A stretch of 5,832 nt of DNA from a virus: positions 1 through 5,832 of the IMG/VR virus record IMGVR_UViG_3300045988_024238, one strand, 5' to 3'. The translations under genes were made by a program, and so were the position numbers. Of the stretch, positions 1 to 5,832 are shown in pieces. Below the pieces are notes generated by a model. It did no database searches, was not told where the DNA came from, and worked only from the letters and a program-made list of their open reading frames with translations. Each line of letters opens with the position of its first letter. Within the stretch, counting starts at the first letter, position 1.

Positions 1-55
1 ATGTTAACTATTTCTATCGTTCCTCCAGTTGTTAGTTTATTTTCCATGTCGTATA
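1..55. repeat. Terminal redundancy, copy 1 of an exact 55-nt direct repeat (identical to 5778..5832). It marks a circular genome of unit length 5777 nt.
   Basis: Read directly: nt 1-55 (atgttaactatttctatcgttcctccagttgttagtttattttccatgtcgtata) recur base for base at 5778-5832. The capsid reading frame is continuous across the join. Confidence 0.95.
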
Positions 56-659
56 ATATGGACCTGTTGGTGAATGTTGTGTTTACGTATGCTGATTTTA
101 CAAGGTAGTAGAAGTCTTTTTCTTGTTTGTTTGCATAGAAATTTTTGAAGATATCCAAGTATGCTAGGCATGGTACTGCATTATTCATTAATATTGTGTC
201 TAAAAACCCGCTTTTCATGCATCTTTGACCCATGTATGCTAGTATACTGCTAGATGAATATGTTAGGTGCGTGCTGTCTGTTATTGTCTGAGTTGTTACT
301 GTTTGTTCAATTTGTGGTAATTTGACCTTGCTCATGTCCAATCCGACATTTAGTGCATTGTTGTGTAGCATTGCGTTGTATAGTCTGAATGGCGCTGTAA
401 AGATGTCTATTTGCATTTTGTAGCTACCGAATAGTGGTCCTACTGTTGGATGCGTCATTACTTTAGTATCAATATCAATGTCGAATGTATCTCCTGGTAG
501 CCCTATTAATTTCATACATGGTACCAGCGTTCCTACACCCATGCTTGACCTCCAGGCATATGATAAATTGTGTGTACTTCTGTTGTAGGTTTTTAGGTCT
601 ATTTTCATGGAATTTCCACCGCCTAGTGTGTTCTTTCCGATTGATTTTGTGATGCTCAT
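1..659 (-). CDS. VP1: Major capsid protein (Microviridae VP1 / F family), 5' portion. ATG at 659. It continues across the circular junction into 5777..4562, giving 1875 nt = 624 aa in total.
   Basis: Hand translation of the - strand from ATG 659 has no stop down to nt 1: MSITKSIGKNTLGGGNSMKIDLKTYNRSTHNLSYAWRSSMGVGTLVPCMKLIGLPGDTFDIDIDTKVMTHPTVGPLFGSYKMQIDIFTAPFRLYN...NRSILYD. It then runs in frame (659-47=612, divisible by 3) into the MENKL... ORF. The segment G.LVP...LPGDTF...F.AP.RL matches the conserved N-terminal jelly-roll region of microvirus VP1 (compare Chlamydia-phage GYLIP..LPGDTF..FFVPLRLIW). The ORF track misses it because the ORF runs off the window edge. Confidence 0.93.
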   Translation of the reverse strand, partial: MSITKSIGKNTLGGGNSMKIDLKTYNRSTHNLSYAWRSSMGVGTLVPCMKLIGLPGDTFDIDIDTKVMTHPTVGPLFGSYKMQIDIFTAPFRLYNAMLHNNALNVGLDMSKVKLPQIEQTVTTQTITDSTHLTYSSSSILAYMGQRCMKSGFLDTILMNNAVPCLAYLDIFKNFYANKQEKDFYYLVKSAYVNTTFTNRSILYDMENKLTTGGTIEIVN

Positions 660-874
660 TTTTCTTCTTGTTTATGTTTTATCTCTTCGTGAATTGTAAA
701 CATTTCTGCTGTCATTGCGAGAATCATGTCCCATTTTGGTGTGTCTATGTACTCTAATGCTTCTGTTTTTGTCTTGAAGTGCTGTTCTGTTGCTAGGTGC
801 TTCCCTACCGTTATGATGAAGTCGTTTTGTTCCTCGTTCGTTGGTCTTACTATAAATAAGTCTTTTATTTCCAT
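656..874 (-). CDS. Hypothetical protein, 72 aa, acidic C-terminus. Stop overlaps the VP1 start (ATGA).
   Basis: ORF on the coding strand. The start lies 1 nt after the stop of the preceding ORF (TAA A ATG) and the stop TGA 658..656 overlaps VP1 ATG 659..657. I recognise no motif. Confidence 0.65.
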   Translation of the reverse strand: MEIKDLFIVRPTNEEQNDFIITVGKHLATEQHFKTKTEALEYIDTPKWDMILAMTAEMFTIHEEIKHKQEEK

Positions 875-875
875 T

Positions 876-1076
876 TTATTCTTTGTTAAAAAGTTTTACG
901 CTTGTGCTGTCCGCTGTTGCTTCTCCGCTTGTTTTGTTCTCGATTGTTTGATTGCTTCCTTTGTTGTTTTTGCTAATTGCTATCATGTTTGTACAACTTA
1001 CTCCCAGCCATGTCAGGATAGCTGATAACACGGCTACGATAATGTTTTTAATTAGTTGTTTTGTTTTGTCACTCAT
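876..1076 (-). CDS. Small predicted lipoprotein, 66 aa precursor (signal peptide plus lipobox, Cys28)
   Basis: MSDKTKQLIKNIIVAVLSAILTWLGVSC|TNMI...: Lys-rich n-region, uncharged hydrophobic h-region, then L-G-V-S-C. This satisfies the classical SPase II rule ([LIVMFWSTAG]2-[LIVMFYSTAGCQ]-[AGS]-C, Cys within residues 15-35, no charged residue in the 6 preceding positions). The mature part is a polar 39-aa peptide. Confidence 0.6.
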   Translation of the reverse strand: MSDKTKQLIKNIIVAVLSAILTWLGVSCTNMIAISKNNKGSNQTIENKTSGEATADSTSVKLFNKE

Positions 1077-1227
1077 TATATATTTTTTTTATAGTTTGTA
1101 TCTCCCAGCTATTTTTTGCAAGTTCCTTTTCCCATTTTGCGATTTTGCTTAAATTGTCCTGCATTACTATTGTTCTTACTTCTCCCGTTCGGGCGTCCAC
1201 GATTTCGCAAACCCAGTTCCACATCAT
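1069..1227 (-). CDS. Hypothetical protein, 52 aa (below ORF-track cutoff)
   Basis: Hand translation: MMWNWVCEIVDARTGEVRTIVMQDNLSKIAKWEKELAKNSWEIQTIKKIYNE*. It fills an otherwise empty gap on the coding strand. Its last 8 nt (ATGAGTGA) overlap the start of the 66-aa ORF. Composition is protein-like with an amphipathic helical C-terminal half. Confidence 0.45.
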   Translation of the reverse strand: MMWNWVCEIVDARTGEVRTIVMQDNLSKIAKWEKELAKNSWEIQTIKKIYNE

Positions 1228-1230
1228 AAC

Positions 1231-1308
1231 TCATCTGTCTTTTAATGATAAAATTATTATTAACATGATAACACTTATTGTGAGTGTTGTTATTAAATAT
1301 CCTTCCAT
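1231..1308 (-). CDS. Possible 25-aa single-pass membrane micropeptide
   Basis: Hand translation: MEGYLITTLTISVIMLIIILSLKDR*. It starts 16 nt after the 82-aa ORF stop and ends 3 nt before the 52-aa ORF start, so it tiles exactly. It is very short and AT-rich, so it could be chance. Confidence 0.25.
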   Translation of the reverse strand: MEGYLITTLTISVIMLIIILSLKDR

Positions 1309-1324
1309 TGTTTCTCGTGAAACA

Positions 1325-1573
1325 TTATTCAAATGCTTTTAATAGTTTTTTTTGTAGTAAACTTTCTACTTCCCTTAGATTTTTTGTGTAGTAAACTTCC
1401 TCGAAGTTATCTATTGTTATTATCCAGCCTTTGTCTGTTTTTGTTGCGTAACCTACATTATCGCCCATTTTTATTATACCGTATTGTTTTTCTCCTGATG
1501 TTTCTAATTGTTTATATCGTCTAAGATGTATCGTTTCTGGCTTGTATGCTTTGAAATAAATATTTCTGTCCAT
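1325..1573 (-). CDS. Hypothetical protein, 82 aa, first gene downstream of the candidate promoter
   Basis: ORF on the coding strand with an A-rich leader and no SD. No recognisable motif. Confidence 0.65.
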   Translation of the reverse strand: MDRNIYFKAYKPETIHLRRYKQLETSGEKQYGIIKMGDNVGYATKTDKGWIITIDNFEEVYYTKNLREVESLLQKKLLKAFE

Positions 1574-1598
1574 AACTTCTATTTTTTTTGATTTGCTT

Positions 1599-1631
1599 CA
1601 AATTTATTGTATTTTTCCCGAAAGTACCAAA
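1599..1631 (-). promoter_or_regulatory. Candidate Bacteroidetes-type promoter: -33 TTTG (1631..1628) and -7 TAAATTTG (1606..1599), 21-nt spacer
   Basis: The + strand reads caaattta at 1599-1606, so the - strand reads TAAATTTG, matching the Bacteroides TAnnTTTG -7 consensus. The + strand reads caaa at 1628-1631, giving TTTG on the - strand. The site lies about 26 nt upstream of ATG 1573. An AT-rich inverted repeat (aaaaatct tt agattttt, 1629..1646) overlaps the -33 element. Confidence 0.4.
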
Positions 1632-1655
1632 AATCTTTAGATTTTTTAAGATAAT

Positions 1656-1698
1656 CGCAACTCTGTTGCGTTACAAGGGTATAGGGACGGTTAGTCCC
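1656..1698. other. Two short GC-rich hairpins: cgcaa-ctctg-ttgcg (1656..1670) and gggac-ggtta-gtccc (1684..1698)
   Basis: Perfect 5-bp stems with 5-nt loops, read directly. The first loop carries the AACTCTGTT 9-mer that recurs in the iteron array. A third hairpin, tcgcac-aga-gtgcga, lies at 1757..1771. Confidence 0.5.
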
Positions 1699-1713
1699 GA
1701 TAGCGTTAGCACC

Positions 1714-1866
1714 TTAGACAACTTCCACCTGCCGTTTGTTTTGTAGTTCGATTCCGTCGCACAGAGTGCGAGCTTCCTCTGCTCTTTTCAACCATGCCCA
1801 CGTAAAATTATCTGATACCACCTGCTGACAACTATCTTGCATGTTATTTGGAAACCCCGCTATCAT
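1714..1866 (-). CDS. Possible 50-aa ORF in the GC-richer island of the control region (below ORF-track cutoff)
   Basis: Hand translation: MIAGFPNNMQDSCQQVVSDNFTWAWLKRAEEARTLCDGIELQNKRQVEVV*. It is bounded upstream by an in-frame TAA and has an alternative start at Met9 (1842). It coincides with a stretch visibly richer in G+C than its very AT-rich flanks. A second TAnnTTTG match (TAGTTTTG, 2035..2028) lies upstream but has no clear -33 TTTG. Confidence 0.35.
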   Translation of the reverse strand: MIAGFPNNMQDSCQQVVSDNFTWAWLKRAEEARTLCDGIELQNKRQVEVV

Positions 1867-1873
1867 TATAATT

Positions 1874-1898
1874 TATATATTTTTCTTTTAAATATATA
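1874..1898. repeat. AT-only inverted repeat (tatatattt - ttctttt - aaatatata), candidate easily melted element
   Basis: 9-bp perfect arms at 1874..1882 and 1890..1898 with a 7-nt spacer. It is embedded in an almost pure A/T stretch (about 1862..1915) next to the iteron array. Confidence 0.5.
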
Positions 1899-1917
1899 TC
1901 TATATGATGATAATAGC

Positions 1918-1993
1918 CTGTTAATATTGTTCATAACTCTGTTAATAGCTTGAAATACAATTATTTAAGCTGTTAATAACTCTGTTCATAACT
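1918..1993 (+). repeat. Iteron array I: five copies of (C/T)TGTT(A/C)ATA(A/G/T)(C/T)
   Basis: GTTAATATT 1920, GTTCATAAC 1929, GTTAATAGC 1941, GTTAATAAC 1972, GTTCATAAC 1984. The 11-mer ataactctgtt is exact at 1933..1943 and 1976..1986. Copy starts are spaced 9, 12, 31 and 12 nt apart, roughly multiples of a helical turn. Confidence 0.6.
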
Positions 1994-2104
1994 TTTTATA
2001 ACTTCTGCCTTTAAAATTTGCTTTTCTCAAAACTATTTATATATAAAAATCAATTCTTAATAATGTGTTAAATTCTCAAATACTTTTCAACAACTTTTCA
2101 ACAT

Positions 2105-2156
2105 ACTTATTAACCGTTTTTGTCCACTTATTAACACAAAAAAAGCGGTTATTAAC
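2105..2156 (+). repeat. Iteron array II: three copies of (C/G)TTATTAAC spaced exactly 21 nt apart
   Basis: acttattaac at 2105..2114 and 2126..2135, and gttattaac at 2148..2156, with starts at 2106, 2127 and 2148. On the viral (-) strand these read GTTAATAA(G/G/C), the same quasi-palindromic GTTAnTAAC family as array I. The third copy sits in the terminator hairpin and contains the rep stop codon. Confidence 0.55.
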
Positions 2157-2160
2157 CGCC
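2138..2160 (-). terminator. Intrinsic (rho-independent-type) terminator at the end of rep
   Basis: The - strand reads gaaaaGGCGGTTAATAACCGCTTTTTTTgtg. The palindrome gcggtta-t-taaccgc (2145..2159) is followed by a T7 tract (the + strand A-run 2138..2144). The rep stop TAA (2154..2152) lies in the loop. The stem is short: 4-5 GC-rich pairs plus AT pairs. Confidence 0.55.
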
Positions 2161-3087
2161 TTTTCGTTGTTCTTTTTGATATTCTTTGAGTTTTTGAAGT
2201 TGTTTTTTATGTCGTTCTCTTTCCCATTCCTCATAGTTTTCGTTGTATAATTCTTTTGCTCGTTCCCGGTAGTAATTCAGGATATTGTTGTATTCTTCTT
2301 CATTGTCTATTGATACCTTTTCGCCGCAAATATATCTGTATCCTCTCTCTTGTTTTTCTATCCAAAGCTTTTCACGTTCTTCTTCTGAATATATTTTCTT
2401 TCTGTAGTATTCAGGTAAAGGTAATTCCTGGCCATTAGGTAGTAGGTAATGTTCGTTTGTTTCTTTGTTTTCCTTGAACTTATTGCGTATGCTGTTAAAA
2501 CTATTTTCATAGCCTTTTCCGATACCTGCGCTGCATAGTATTATTCCTATGTAGTTTCTGTCTATTGGGTTTTCTTTTAGCATGTATTTAACGACATAGT
2601 TTATTGTCTTACTATTGCACATGTTTCCTTGGAATACAAATCCGTATTTCCAATTATTGCGTACAAGTTCGGGATCTCCCCAGCAAATTCCGTGTAGATG
2701 TATTCTCCCTGTGTTTTCTCCTAGTTCTGTGATAAACCAGTGTTTTATTGAATGTTTTGTTTTCTTTCTGATTCTTTCTAGCATTCTTTTGACTGCCAGT
2801 TTACAAATCGAATCTCTGTCTTTTTTTGTGCTGTTTGCCTTAAGTTTTTCGTATTCTTCGTTTGATATTGTTAATGTCCAGAATGTAGCTTTTTCGGGAT
2901 TGTTTTTGATTTCTTCATTTAACCTTATTACCCATTCTCTCTTCCTTGCTTTCCTGCATTCTATGCATCTACCGCATTTTGCTGGTACTAATAATAAACG
3001 CCTATCTTCACAGACAGGCGCTTTAAAGTTATTTTTTTTGTTTGGTTGGTATTTTTTGTTTTGTATGTATTTAGTATATAAGCACAT
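2152..3087 (-). CDS. VP4: Rolling-circle replication initiator (HUH superfamily I Rep, Microviridae VP4 / gene A family), 311 aa from ATG 3087. An alternative upstream ATG at 3123 gives 323 aa.
   Basis: Motif 1 FWTLTI. Motif 2 RIHLHGICW (HUH; His codons at 2700..2692). Motif 3 with two Tyr, NYVVKYMLK (compare phiX174 A, YVAKYVNK). Cys cluster CGRCIECRKARKREW. ATG 3087 gives an MCLYTKY... N-terminus and lies 2 nt after the VP2 stop (TAA AT ATG). Confidence 0.93.
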   Translation of the reverse strand: MCLYTKYIQNKKYQPNKKNNFKAPVCEDRRLLLVPAKCGRCIECRKARKREWVIRLNEEIKNNPEKATFWTLTISNEEYEKLKANSTKKDRDSICKLAVKRMLERIRKKTKHSIKHWFITELGENTGRIHLHGICWGDPELVRNNWKYGFVFQGNMCNSKTINYVVKYMLKENPIDRNYIGIILCSAGIGKGYENSFNSIRNKFKENKETNEHYLLPNGQELPLPEYYRKKIYSEEEREKLWIEKQERGYRYICGEKVSIDNEEEYNNILNYYRERAKELYNENYEEWERERHKKQLQKLKEYQKEQRKGG

Positions 3088-3089
3088 AT

Positions 3090-4136
3090 TTATTTTCGTA
3101 TTGTTTTGCCGAAGCCAGCCCATTTTCCGAATATTGCGCTGATTATTGCTGTTAGTAATTTCCCGTATTTACCTTCTCCTCCTAAATCGTTAATTAGGTC
3201 GCTTAGTGCTTTGTCTTGTTCGAATTGCCATTTCTGTATAGCTGTTTCGTTTTTTGCTTGTTTAGCTTCTTCTACCATTTTGCCGAATACCGCTATTTTA
3301 CCGTTGGCAATTTCATCTAATGCGTCTGATAGTTTTATCGCTACCTCTTTGTCGTTTTTAGCTTCTTGGTATTCTTTTTGTGATATACCGTAATCGGCTA
3401 ACATTCTTTGTAGTTCGTTTTCTTTAAATAATTCTGAAAATCCTTTTGTCCACACGGTTGTGCCGTTTACTTCGCCTTGTAGTGTTATACCTTTTCTTAA
3501 CTCGTTCAGGTAGTTGTTGAATTCTATGTTTTTGCTTTCTTCGTTTGTTTTGTGTATCTGACTTGTGAGTGATTCTATTCTTTTTTCTGATTCTTTTACC
3601 TCTTGTTTATTTTTGGCTGTTTCAGACTCTATATTTTCTGTGTCAACCGTCATCAGTTTTGCTGCTTCTGCATTTGCTTTTGCCGCTTGTGCTTCTGTTA
3701 GTTGTTTTTGCGCTTCCATGGTTTGCCATTGTATTGCCATTCCTACCCCTGTTGATGCTGGCAGACCTACACCTGCTGCACTTCCTGCTCCTGCTGCGCT
3801 TCCTCCACTACCACCATTTCCGTATAGTAATGCTGGGTTTAGTCCTGCATTTTTTAGGTGTTCAACTTGGTTTTCATAGTTTGTGTAATCCCACATTTCT
3901 TTCGATAATTCTGTGCTGTATTGCGCTTGTTCCTTGTTGTATTTAGACTGTAAAGCCATGTATTCAAGTTGCCTTTGATGTTCTCTTTCTTCGGCTTCTC
4001 TTGCTTTCTTTTCTTTTCTTGAGCCTAAGCCTAATAGTGAGCCTATTCCGCTTAATGCTCCTGTGACTAGTCCTCCTACACCTCCTGTCAGACCTCCTAG
4101 TGCTGCGCTTCCTAATGCTGTACCTATATTTCCCAT
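3090..4136 (-). CDS. VP2: DNA pilot / minor capsid protein (Microviridae VP2 / H-like), 348 aa
   Basis: Gly/Ala/Leu-rich hydrophobic N-terminus (GTALGSAALGGLTGGVGGLVTGALSGIGSLLGLG). Conserved VEHLKNAGLNPALLYG motif followed by a second Gly-rich tract. Long charged, coiled-coil-like region (AQKQLTEAQAAKANAEAAK...). Sits between the capsid module and rep, as in gokusho/alpaviruses. Confidence 0.85.
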   Translation of the reverse strand: MGNIGTALGSAALGGLTGGVGGLVTGALSGIGSLLGLGSRKEKKAREAEEREHQRQLEYMALQSKYNKEQAQYSTELSKEMWDYTNYENQVEHLKNAGLNPALLYGNGGSGGSAAGAGSAAGVGLPASTGVGMAIQWQTMEAQKQLTEAQAAKANAEAAKLMTVDTENIESETAKNKQEVKESEKRIESLTSQIHKTNEESKNIEFNNYLNELRKGITLQGEVNGTTVWTKGFSELFKENELQRMLADYGISQKEYQEAKNDKEVAIKLSDALDEIANGKIAVFGKMVEEAKQAKNETAIQKWQFEQDKALSDLINDLGGEGKYGKLLTAIISAIFGKWAGFGKTIRK

Positions 4137-4144
4137 TTTTCGTA

Positions 4145-4258
4145 GCTTTTTTTAAAAGCGTTAGTTACTTAGTTCATATATAAGAGCACACACGTACTAT
4201 CGTGTGATTCTTTAGAAGTAAGGGACTTAGATAAGTCCCTTATGCTCATACGTGCTCT
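4145..4258. other. Structured intergenic region: three hairpins plus an enclosing helix
   Basis: gctttt-ttt-aaaagc at 4145..4159. cacacg-tactat-cgtgtg at 4189..4206. A 24-nt perfect palindrome, taagggactta-ga-taagtccctta, at 4219..4242. agagcac (4183..4189) is complementary to gtgctct (4252..4258). No T-tract follows on the coding strand, so it is not a canonical terminator. Confidence 0.6.
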
Positions 4259-4262
4259 GCCG

Positions 4263-4559
4263 TTATTCTGCTGGTTTTGTTTCTTCAGGTTTTGTTTCTT
4301 CAGGTTTTTTTATTCCTTTACTCTTAGCGATTTTGCTTGCGTTTGCTAAGTCCATTGCAGATTGTGCTATTTCCCATCTATCTGTTCTGATGTCGTATTC
4401 TGGTCTTACTCCATCCTTTTTCTCTGTATAGATAATTGGCGCACCGTCTGTAATTGGTTCGTTATTTTCTATTAGTTTTGCACATTTTTTTTCAATGCTT
4501 TGTCCTTCACTTGGTTCTATGTAACCTATGAATGTTGGCTTGTATTCTGTTTTTTTCAT
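4263..4559 (-). CDS. Small protein, 98 aa from ATG 4559 (the track ORF starts at 4631 and overlaps VP1). Function uncertain; its position suggests a scaffold-type (VP3-like) protein.
   Basis: MKKTEYKPTFIGYIEPSEGQ...PIIYTEKKDGVRPEYDIRTDRWEIAQSAMDLAN...KPEETKPEETKPAE. ATG 4559 lies 2 nt after the VP1 stop (TAA CA ATG), the same junction design as VP2/VP4. The scaffold idea rests only on position and size. Confidence 0.7.
   Translation of the reverse strand: MKKTEYKPTFIGYIEPSEGQSIEKKCAKLIENNEPITDGAPIIYTEKKDGVRPEYDIRTDRWEIAQSAMDLANASKIAKSKGIKKPEETKPEETKPAE
4273..4308. repeat. 15-bp tandem repeat (ggttttgtttcttca, 2.4 copies) encoding (KPEET)2KP at the C-terminus of the 98-aa protein
   Basis: Exact copies at 4273..4287 and 4288..4302, then a partial ggtttt at 4303..4308. 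Confidence 0.85.
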
Positions 4560-4561
4560 TG

Positions 4562-5832
4562 TTATAAGTTTGGTATTTGTTTTGCACTCATTACTCTTCT
4601 CGATTCTATTCCGAATCCTATTTGTACCCAAAAATTTTGGCTCTCTGTTGTTGTTTCAGCGAATATATAATTGTATTTGCCTGGGTCTATGTAACTTGTG
4701 TTGTCTATTTTATTGCTTGTGAAGTCTCCATTTTCAGGTTCGAATATTCTGTTTAACACCATGAATGCTTCATTTCCGTTTTCTGCGAATGTTCCGTATG
4801 TTTTGTTAAAGTTTGTCATATAGTTTATCCAGGCAACACTCTTTCCATATGAAACTTCTCCGCTTACCCAACCTGCTTCCCAGACTGTCAATAAATCCTG
4901 ATAGCCTATTCCGTCTAATGCTGGTTTATGTAAGTCGTTAAGTGTGATTAGTTCATTATCCCAGTCATTTCCCTGGCAATAGTCTACTCTTGGTGTTATT
5001 GATGCTATTCCGATAATATAACATGGTTCATTTACTTTAATATGTAGTTTACCACCTTTTTTTTGAGTGTTGATTCCTCTACCTGCTAGTGTTCCTAATG
5101 GCTCATCACCGCTTGCTGAATTTGATACTATTTCCTGAAATTCTATTTCAGTCGATAATCCTCCTTCGTACATTGGTGTCTCTGTATGCATGTTCCAGCT
5201 AGATGTATATACAGTTTCTACCCAATCTTGGTAAGTTCCTCCGCTGACTGCAATTCTGTTTAGCATATCATATACTTTTTTCGATAGGTTTAGCTGGTCT
5301 ATTGTGAATTTGTCACCCGTTGTACTGATAGCTGTTATTGCATTAATTCCGTTGTCCCCGTCTATCCATTCAGTATTTATCCAATTATTAAATATGTCAG
5401 ATTGATATGTCTTTAGGATTAGCCCGCATCCTGCTTCCTTTAAGTTTAATATTCCGTTTGCTTCTCCTAATACGTCTTGGAAATATTTGTTTGTAGTTCT
5501 ATCAATCTTGAATCGAGTTTCTCCTGCTTTTAATATGTTTTCTCTCAGCTCGTCTAGTGATGTAAGTCCTGCCTTCTGTATATACGAGTTGTTTTTGTAT
5601 CTTGCTTGCTCTCCAAATTTCCAATATTGCCCTCTCTTGAATGTTAGTAGTACATTGCTCCCCTTTTGCGTTGCCGTCCAGTATTTGTTAATTTGTGTGC
5701 TGTTGAGCCATTTACTTGTGTTTCCTTCTGTTTCAGTTCCATATACTTCACCTGACGAGTTCCATTGTTCTAGTGTCATGTTAACTATTTCTATCGTTCC
5801 TCCAGTTGTTAGTTTATTTTCCATGTCGTATA
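4562..5832 (-). CDS. VP1: Major capsid protein VP1, 3' portion (C-terminal 420 aa plus the duplicated junction). Stop TAA at 4564..4562.
   Basis: 420-aa ORF in the track. Its apparent Met (5824) is internal, equivalent to nt 47 of the first repeat copy. It is the longest ORF in the genome, and 624 aa agrees with Alpavirinae-like capsids, which are larger than gokushovirus VP1. Confidence 0.93.
   Translation of the reverse strand, partial: YDMENKLTTGGTIEIVNMTLEQWNSSGEVYGTETEGNTSKWLNSTQINKYWTATQKGSNVLLTFKRGQYWKFGEQARYKNNSYIQKAGLTSLDELRENILKAGETRFKIDRTTNKYFQDVLGEANGILNLKEAGCGLILKTYQSDIFNNWINTEWIDGDNGINAITAISTTGDKFTIDQLNLSKKVYDMLNRIAVSGGTYQDWVETVYTSSWNMHTETPMYEGGLSTEIEFQEIVSNSASGDEPLGTLAGRGINTQKKGGKLHIKVNEPCYIIGIASITPRVDYCQGNDWDNELITLNDLHKPALDGIGYQDLLTVWEAGWVSGEVSYGKSVAWINYMTNFNKTYGTFAENGNEAFMVLNRIFEPENGDFTSNKIDNTSYIDPGKYNYIFAETTTESQNFWVQIGFGIESRRVMSAKQIPNL
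5778..5832. repeat. Terminal redundancy, copy 2 (identical to 1..55)
   Basis: Exact 55/55 identity with the window start. A 55-nt overlap is typical of de Bruijn assembly of a circular molecule rather than a biological terminal repeat. Confidence 0.95.

Follow-up and report, generated by a model that had tools for sequence, protein, structure and literature searches.

The virus record IMGVR_UViG_3300045988_024238 of IMG/VR (positions 1 to 5,832; this whole stretch is called the window here) holds a complete circular microvirus genome of 5,777 nt, the 5,832 bases including a 55-nt terminal redundancy. In the non-coding stretch downstream of its gene for Rep, the initiator of rolling-circle replication (RCR), lie 11 directional copies of a nine-base site with the consensus (G)TTATnAACA(G), arranged as two opposed arrays around an AT-rich spacer. 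The sites are non-random, directional, phased and selected; they match variants of the DnaA box, and with the adjoining sequences they match a grammar of chromosomal origins (oriC) predicted for the presumed host order, Bacteroidales. Judged from the sequence comparisons set out below, the arrays are very probably real, selected, directional protein-binding sites, and we give a probability of about one half to the reading that they constitute an origin-like module for unwinding or priming that depends on host DnaA.

The minus strand encodes all of the genes and is therefore the viral strand. The left array (1919–2001, minus strand; the second array on the viral strand) contains six boxes that read TTATnAACA on the viral strand, located at 1919–1927, 1928–1936, 1940–1948 and, after a gap, 1971–1979, 1983–1991 and 1993–2001, with start-to-start spacings of 9, 12, 31, 12 and 10. 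The right array (2084–2157, plus strand; the first array on the viral strand) contains five boxes of the form TTATnAAC(A/C) or TTTTCAACA, at 2084–2092, 2095–2103, 2107–2115, 2128–2136 and 2149–2157, spaced by 11, 12, 21 and 21 bp. Read on the plus strand, every left copy is TGTTnATAA and every right copy is TTATnAAC(A/C); orientation is thus uniform inside each array and opposite between the two, with spacings of 9–12 and 21 bp that are conserved in three sub-clades. The first-pass annotation of this DNA had described eight clustered 9-mers, an exact 11-mer duplicate and three right-hand sites phased at 21 bp. All of these are present, the phased sites starting at 2107, 2128 and 2149, but the arrays are larger than its count. 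Its view of the core as a quasi-palindrome bound by a dimer does not hold, because the consensus GTTATnAACAG is asymmetric and uniformly oriented in each array, which fits a monomer-type directional site.

Exact matches to GTT[AC][AT]TAA[CG] on either strand start at 1929, 1972, 1984, 2106, 2127 and 2148, and there are none elsewhere in the 5,777 nt; the copies at 1920 (GTTAATATT) and 1941 (GTTAATAGC) carry one or two mismatches to this degenerate pattern. Longer exact repeats include the 11-mer TGTTCATAACT at 1928 and 1983, and CTGTTAATA three times, at 1918, 1939 and 1970. Two copies of CTTTTCAAC, at 2083–2091 and 2094–2102, add further in-phase members to the right array (the boxes from 2084 and 2095), and TTTTTATAA at 1993–2001 brings the left array to six copies. 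In a comparison with 5,000 dinucleotide-preserving shuffles of positions 1900–2165 (25% GC), the TTATnAAC core TTATNAAC occurs exactly six times where 0.21 are expected, with a shuffle maximum of three and none of the 5,000 shuffles reaching six. With at most one mismatch, TTATNAACA occurs 13 times in the 266 bp versus 1.48 expected (shuffle maximum seven, none reaching 13). The clustering thus stands well clear of a composition-matched background.

Sites and spacing are kept in about 17 microvirus genomes. A search of IMG/VR gave 58 relatives by Rep, most of which lack such arrays: enrichment of TTATnAAC downstream of rep is limited to the W clade (Rep identity at least 85%) and L048 (Rep ~54%), and about 45 others have 0–2 copies there. 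A scan for the pattern added L071, L076, L139, L149, L175 and L189, which are 49–54% identical to the window in Rep, 46–51% in the capsid protein and ~32% in the pilot protein, and the mosaic genome L168 likewise carries the module. On the viral strand the shared ~300-bp architecture begins with five TGTTnATAA sites (spaced 21, 21, 12, 11 or 11, 21, 12, 11, a pattern found again in L071 and the L076 group), followed by an AT-rich spacer of 50–95 nt, three plus three copies of GTTATnAACAG, the flank AACAGG(C/A)TAT(T/C)AT.CATATA and an AT-rich stretch. GenBank MT135366, of porcine origin, retains both arrays in a non-coding region of 80.6% identity to that of the window. The genome of the window has been assembled from human gut samples, and L068, from a different assembly record, has an identical intergenic module. 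A BLAST search of the module against plasmids and phages returned chance-level matches and one known close relative only.

Across 12 non-redundant genomes, the columns of the left-array box cores are 0.96 identical, versus 0.78 for the columns between boxes (Mann-Whitney p=3e-7), and by this measure the sites are evidently under purifying selection across the phage clade. In a neighbour-joining tree of Rep the array-bearing genomes form one clade. Copy number varies within it: a 21-nt unit is duplicated in L005 and L071, sites 3–5 of the right array are missing from L014 (junction GCAAAAT/ATTATTAAC, relative to L005), and the whole left array is missing from L004 (junction AAAGT/TATATATTTCTG, relative to L007). 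The L004 and L014 contigs have no terminal redundancy and may be incomplete. The ends of the two deletions show plain microhomology, TATA and AAAT, and a site-specific event as the source of the L004 deletion was rejected on account of the TATA at its ends.

The likely host order is Bacteroidales. On the minus strand at 1589–1621, directly upstream of the operon of small open reading frames (ORFs) and capsid gene, the viral strand carries TTTG-N21-TAAATTTG, an instance of TTTG-N21-TAnnTTTG and a promoter of Bacteroidetes type, the consensus of Bacteroides promoters being TTTG/TAnnTTTG. An equivalent element is present in all relatives inspected and suggests a host among the Bacteroidota; relatives are integrated in metagenome-assembled genomes (MAGs) of Bacteroidales or binned with them, and the source is human gut.

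The consensus GTTATnAACAG departs from the classical DnaA box GTTATCCACAG only at the fifth position, which is free, and at position 6, where A replaces C; this A is also the one mismatch that separates each site in the window from the E. coli box TTATNCACA. We refer to boxes with C at position 6 as C6 and to those with A, as in the phage arrays, as A6. The motif matches the DnaA-box variants TTATCAACA, TTATTAACA and TTTTCAACA of low-GC bacterial origins, those of Bacteroidales included, and relatives of the window carry perfect TTATCAACA (Thermoanaerobacter tengcongensis consensus TTATCNACA) and TTATTCACA. The oriC boxes of T. tengcongensis have the consensus TTATCNACA (TTATCnACA), and an oligonucleotide for electrophoretic mobility shift assays has two DnaA boxes marked by boxing, of which TGTTGATAA is one. 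That origin has 12 boxes in two groups, and the 89-bp AT-rich spacer between them is the site of opening and initiation. In phage T5, TTATCAACA and TTATTAACA are recorded as variant DnaA boxes. Literature searches by literal sequence gave mostly noise and were useful only for the T. tengcongensis and T5 papers. Among the predicted origin boxes adjoining DnaA-trios in the supplementary table of Pelliciari et al. 2021 (PMC8287927), TTATTAACA is listed for Odoribacter, Clostridium tetani and C. botulinum, TTATCAACA is the standard box for Borrelia, and the predicted origin of Porphyromonas gingivalis (DoriC ORI92530214) has TTTTCAACA and TTATCAACA+GTTTCAACC. In E. coli oriC, low-affinity DnaA sites form clusters of four, 2 bp apart, and the title of Rozgaja 2011, cited in the paper that describes these, speaks of two oppositely oriented arrays.

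Two side observations concern similar boxes elsewhere. Clusters of TTATCAACA are also present in the larger phage contigs L077, L119, L126 and L155, and the array-less relatives L016 and L021 have two tandem copies of ATTTCCACA, a C6-type DnaA-box-like sequence, at an 11-bp period about 90–125 nt past the Rep stop, as well as GAGGTTCTC-type tandem repeats that overlap the Rep stop.

The likeness to bacterial origins may extend to the outer end of the left array. An AT-rich stretch at 1865–1905 (41 nt with two C and no G, 95% A+T) is a candidate DNA-unwinding element and contains the AT-only inverted repeat noticed earlier, with fully complementary 9-nt arms at 1874–1882 and 1890–1898; an AT-rich stretch is found at the equivalent place in all array-bearing relatives. 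Between it and the last box lies a DnaA-trio-like flank at 1901–1918 (plus strand), a run of trinucleotide repeats with a short GC gap abutting the box, TATATGATGATAATAG-CC. The trio criterion is a box or box pair, a gap of at most 16 bp and then at least three DnaA-trios (3'-NAN-5'), which is a weak criterion in AT-rich DNA; the orientation of this grammar was taken from the supplementary table of PMC8287927 and the window was compared with its tables of the basal unwinding system (BUS). On the viral strand the end reads TTATGAACA-ATATTAACA-GGCT-ATT ATC ATC ATA, whose complement TAA TAG TAG TAT gives four trios in a pattern that is too permissive in AT-rich DNA to carry significance by itself. 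From the box, 3' to 5' on the plus strand, the flank may be divided as CCGA TAA TAG TAG TAT or as CC GAT AAT AGT AGT; in the alternative frame only GAT AAT fit in the window, and L003 and L076 give GAT/TAT AAT AAT. The flank AACAGG(C/A)TAT(T/C)AT is conserved across clades. In L048 the trinucleotide and AT-rich flank stands at the opposite end and on the opposite strand with the orientation of box to flank preserved, which points to action on duplex DNA.

At its outer end the left array of most relatives has TTATGAACA-GTTTCAACA-GG, with trinucleotide repeats and then AT-rich DNA beyond it, and at 16 of 17 positions this end matches the predicted P. gingivalis oriC, which has the same succession of box pair (TTATCAACA-GTTTCAACC), G/C gap, trinucleotide repeats and AT stretch. 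In metagenome contigs the 575-bp intergenic region of P. gingivalis contains two copies of TTTTCCACA, one each of TTATTCACA and GTGGATAA, and TGTCGATAA-ACC-TGTTGAAAA; at one end stands TTATCAACA-GTTTCAACC-GAC, then trinucleotide repeats and AT-rich DNA. This region holds all three C6-type (TTATCCACA-like) and two of the three A6-type boxes of the 7.7-kb locus. Local alignment to the predicted origin gives P <=0.003 for L003, L005, L076, L139 and L175, and the relatives' AT-rich stretch aligns with the one that follows its box pair. Around tandem TTATnAACA pairs in unrelated viral contigs (within 300 nt), the density of canonical TTATCCACA boxes is 16-fold that found elsewhere, an enrichment driven by a few loci.

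The arrays are separated by an AT-rich central spacer of about 80 bp (2002–2083) that holds CCTTTAAAATTTG (viral strand CAAATTTTAAAGG) and a weak site in reverse orientation at 2055–2063. The viral-strand CAAATTTTAAAGG is conserved in the W clade and L048, and its reverse complement CCTTAAAATTTGG is found in L076, L139, L149, L071 and L189, which hints at an inverted or symmetric signal in the spacer. At the other end of the right array, an intrinsic-terminator-like hairpin, GCGGTTAATAACCGC with a run of seven T (2138–2159, minus strand), overlaps the Rep stop codon (2152–2154) and the box at 2149–2157. A terminator scan places the GC hairpin at 2145–2159 with the T run on the coding strand and the right-most box at the hairpin apex, a position that the first-pass list of sites had not given it. 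The hairpin is invariant in the W clade and L001–L007, and in L168 the change to GAGGTT..AACCTC is compensatory, keeping the stem and the T run. The Rep-proximal site of the right array doubles as the Rep terminator hairpin.

As we picture it, DnaA-ATP of the Bacteroidales host would occupy the two opposed arrays on the double-stranded replicative form and oligomerise, and the terminal box pair and its adjoining repeats would direct melting of the AT-rich stretch at ~1865–1905. The opening could load host helicase and primase, either for Rep-independent copying of a theta-like or plasmid-like kind or for priming of the replicative form; alternatively, it could present a single-stranded substrate to Rep. 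Rep-independent copying might amount to a plasmid-like, non-integrated carrier state, and phage replication would be coupled to the initiation potential of the host. The layout that the phage would have copied is the DnaA-assembly region of a bacterial oriC together with its basal unwinding system of box, box, GC gap, trinucleotide repeat and AT-rich DNA. That host DnaA is the binder we consider an even call, perhaps marginally better. The fuller proposal, in which a single-stranded DNA (ssDNA) phage with its own Rep also recruits host DnaA through a miniature working copy of the host chromosomal origin, is offered more tentatively, as a possibility that the odds do not favour.

A number of points weigh against dependence on DnaA. 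All of the boxes in the window have A at position 6, with no perfect copy of a published consensus (TTATNCACA or TTATCNACA), and in E. coli the C at position 6 of the DnaA box is specifically read. The predicted P. gingivalis origin mixes C6 boxes (TTTTCCACA, TTATTCACA) with A6 boxes, whereas the phage arrays are almost purely A6, and the second end box of the window is ATATTAACA, with an alignment to that origin that is not significant (P=0.16). The Bacteroidales boxes are themselves the output of a mismatch-tolerant algorithm, not footprints, in an origin that is predicted, and AT-rich DNA satisfies the trio rule easily. All genomes with the arrays fall in a single Rep clade, so that the arrays may have been inherited together with Rep, and the viral-strand sequence TGTTGATAA includes TTGATA, similar to the core nicked in phiX174 and pC194. 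The absence of the left array from L004 and of most of the right array from L014 means that either array may be dispensable, unless these genomes are defective. The host comparison is at the level of a presumed order, Bacteroidales. Finally, the searchable literature contains no report of a role for DnaA in any microvirus, which is weak evidence of novelty and not proof.

The same facts bear on a somewhat unlikely alternative, in which the arrays are Rep iterons, reiterated sequences resembling the Rep nick site, or both, and form the double-strand (+) origin of rolling-circle replication. The first-pass annotation had implied Rep or a small-ORF product as the binder within an iteron-plus-unwinding-element architecture; of this, the phased arrays around an AT-rich spacer, the adjacent AT stretch and their conservation stand, and the assignment to a dimer, to Rep or to a small-ORF product is not supported. 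Direct repeats beside a nick hairpin bind HUH-type Reps in RCR plasmids, and here the arrays lie directly downstream of rep with the first copy inside a hairpin, in genomes that all belong to one Rep clade. CTTG/ATA is the nick core of phiX174 and pC194-type Reps, and right-array copies on the viral strand (TGTTGATAA or TGTTGAAAA) contain the similar TTGA(T)A. A search of 58–65 genomes for a universal nick-site k-mer or a CTTGATA core found only coding k-mers and the arrays themselves, leaving no alternative conserved nick core elsewhere. The duplications and deletions of 21-nt units in L005, L071 and L014 could arise from reinitiation or termination at reiterated nick sites, but the deletion ends are plain microhomology. 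Iterons normally co-vary with Rep specificity, and yet the motif is unchanged across Reps only 49–55% identical to that of the window. Half of the copies occupy the complementary strand, where nicking by Rep would not be expected, and of the five viral-strand copies in the window three are GTTAATAA, without G before the nick position, the other two being GTTGAAAA. No RCR double-strand origin is known to have a layout of two opposed arrays with five to six copies each, and both the motif and the grammar of the ends match elements of host oriC.

Position and phasing would also suit sites of an operator or architectural kind, at which some other protein that binds duplex DNA (a host transcription factor or nucleoid protein, or an unrecognised phage product) regulates the late promoter or read-through from rep; plasmid partition and operator systems, in which a promoter is flanked by iteron arrays, offer a comparison. 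The arrays occupy the interval from the Rep terminator to the capsid-operon promoter (in L048 and in the type represented by L139, L149 and L071, directly upstream of that promoter), and helical phasing and variable copy number would fit such a role. We regard it as distinctly unlikely. In the W clade 250–330 nt of unrelated GC-rich DNA separates arrays and promoter, and the sites were not recognised as the motif of any known regulator, in contrast to their specific match to the DnaA box. Nor does any phage ORF co-occur with the arrays: searches of Pfam and PHROGs gave no DNA-binding match in the small ORFs, helix-turn-helix and ribbon-helix-helix folds included, and none of these ORFs tracks the arrays. 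For the 82-aa ORF no relative has a homologue, the 52-aa ORF is found only in the window, L001 and L048, and the 66-aa and 72-aa ORFs have a wider distribution. This distribution, the constancy of the motif across Reps of ~50% identity and the likeness to DnaA boxes tell against both of the binders that had been suggested.

A coding explanation of the 21-bp phase was considered and rejected. The 52-aa ORF (2076–2234, minus strand) translates the right array in frame into the heptads VNNRFFC/VNKWTKT/VNKYVEK, but it is stopped early in L001 and L014. It overlaps the 3' end of rep, is open in several relatives and is probably not a gene.

It is very unlikely that the inverted arrays act by folding the packaged single strand into a hairpin that serves as the origin of the complementary strand, whether with host RNA polymerase or primase in the manner of a single-strand origin (sso-like) or with DnaA boxes reconstituted in the stem. 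Every ssDNA phage needs such a signal, the arrays are nearly the only non-coding DNA in L048, L139, L149 and L071, and on M13 A-site DNA a DnaA box within an ssDNA hairpin is able to support priming that depends on DnaA. The viral strand of the window folds with array-array pairing at -31.3 kcal/mol, versus -19.4 for shuffles (z=-3.67), but the terminator hairpin contributes part of this score, and for L139 the module has no such advantage over its shuffles (z=-1.23). One array is not spaced as the mirror image of the other, the variable base at the box centre has no complementary partner in the opposite array in the L076 group (G opposite G), and in L048 the flank is on the other strand.

Extremely improbable is the suggestion that the region is or contains a dif-like phage attachment site (attP) for integration by host XerC/D, as in the distant relatives L011 and L012 (Rep 44–46%), proviruses flanked by 28–29-nt dif-like repeats 180–250 nt after rep: the units here are direct repeats and not two inverted 11-bp arms around a 6-bp core, look-alikes (GGCTATTATCATCATATAGATATAT, ~1885–1915) lack a right arm conserved across relatives, there is no conserved ATAA-N6-TTAT two-arm site, and in a search of one genome per species the window proteins were found only on contigs of ~2–6 kb, with no integrated copy of the clade. 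Dif-like att sites for Bacteroidales microvirus proviruses were described by Krupovic and Forterre 2011. In L011 the repeats are at 3385–3412 and 9177–9204 and in L012 at 3162–3190 and 9142–9170, 5.8–6.0 kb apart (e.g. TGGTTAACATAATGTAGATTATAATTCA); the hosts are Bacteroides and Ca. Aphodosoma MAGs, in agreement with the published XerCD model.

Set against known systems, the module shares with oriC (the E. coli arrays, the B. subtilis incC BUS and T. tengcongensis) directional 9-mers of the TTATnnACA family, set two turns apart or with gaps of 0–3 bp and divided into two opposed groups, a potentially opening AT-rich region, and a trio-like succession of box pair, GC gap and trinucleotide repeats at one end. 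With T. tengcongensis it has in common two box groups around an AT spacer of ~80–90 bp. It differs from oriC in that it belongs to a 5.8-kb ssDNA genome with its own HUH Rep, has mostly A6 boxes and has no adjacent dnaA/dnaN. The first-step-transfer repeats of T5 offer another mobile element with host-initiator boxes, including the non-consensus TTATCAACA and TTATTAACA. Origins of the P1, F and pSC101 types carry host-initiator boxes. All of these are double-stranded DNA replicons in which one to few boxes assist a plasmid Rep or have an unknown role, unlike the 11 boxes of the phage module. RCR origins, such as the pMV158 bind/nic loci, a double-strand origin with Rep iterons, are alike in having an HUH Rep, tandem ~11-bp direct repeats near a hairpin and a TTGATA-like core on the displaced strand, but they lack the features of two opposed arrays, half of the copies on the wrong strand and a motif that stays constant as Rep diverges; the 30-nt origin of phiX174 has no iterons and lies inside gene A. 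The A site of the ABC primosome likewise presents DnaA-box sequences able to become double-stranded in an ssDNA phage genome, although it is one box in one stable hairpin, whereas the pairing in the phage is imperfect, not conserved and without covariation. The dif-like attP of Alpavirinae occupies the same neighbourhood downstream of rep and is AT-rich with ATAA/TTAT, but this clade has neither a two-arm 28-bp site nor proviral copies.

The remaining genes are organized as a single minus-strand series. The major capsid protein (624 aa; Phage_F, phrog_514) is encoded across the window ends, followed in gene order by a 98-aa ORF and the DNA pilot protein (4136 to 3090). Rep (2152–3123; PF23343, phrog_942) is an HUH rolling-circle initiator with HLH and YVVKY motifs in the alignment, and its true start is likely MCLYTKY at 3087 rather than 3123. 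The non-coding region extends from 2151 to 1574 (578 nt), with the arrays in its Rep-proximal half, and is followed by five small ORFs that lead back into the capsid gene. Among these, the 66-aa ORF (876–1076, minus strand), which we take to be a lipoprotein from its lipobox-like N-terminus LTWLGVSC, is 91% identical in L048, versus ~52–54% for Rep, indicating recombination of a module of non-coding DNA and small ORFs between lineages. Rfam and tRNA scans of the window gave no matches. Two hairpins, CACACGTACTATCGTGTG and AAGGGACTTAGATAAGTCCCTT, lie at 4187–4245 between the 98-aa ORF and the pilot-protein gene; CACACGTACTATCGTGTG was flagged by the terminator scan on both strands, its minus-strand match being at 4187–4206.

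Between the arrays and the promoter, outside the array module, is a conserved GC-rich and hairpin-rich block (1640–1860, minus strand) with the core AAGGTGCTAACGCT. It is more conserved than its flanks, is present in L008, L009 and L015 (Rep ~50%) and is absent from L048, L139, L149 and L071. A hairpin that follows the core has a covarying stem, with GGGAC/GTCCC in the window, GGGGC/GCCCC in L003 and CTAGGGC/GCCCTAG in L008, and a search of Rfam gave no match to the block. Candidate roles for the block are the true Rep origin, an origin for the complementary strand and a small RNA. Beside it, L004 has a GC-rich insertion (GGCGTTACCCCTAAAGGGGTCGGGCTTTCCGC; 54–138, minus strand), homologous in L003, L006 and L007, that scores 34.3 bits against the Flavo-1 RNA RF01705 (E=0.0011), below the gathering score of 42. 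In L008 a perfect parS-like palindrome, GTTTCACGTGAAAC, lies at ~6010–6035 just upstream of the first small ORF, and L009 has a different palindrome.

Gut microviruses are among the most abundant phages in animal guts, and to our knowledge, among microviruses the cis-acting elements of replication have been defined in the phiX174 group alone. Should DnaA prove to bind the arrays, this would give a first sign of a microvirus making use of the host initiator, and a fragment of ~300 bp would be available for assays of binding, unwinding, priming and autonomous replication. The arrays would also suggest a way for the phage to persist without integration, and since the phage boxes should then mirror the boxes of the host oriC, they may open a new route to host prediction. 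Even with Rep as the binder, the arrays would be the first mapped origin-type element in this lineage.

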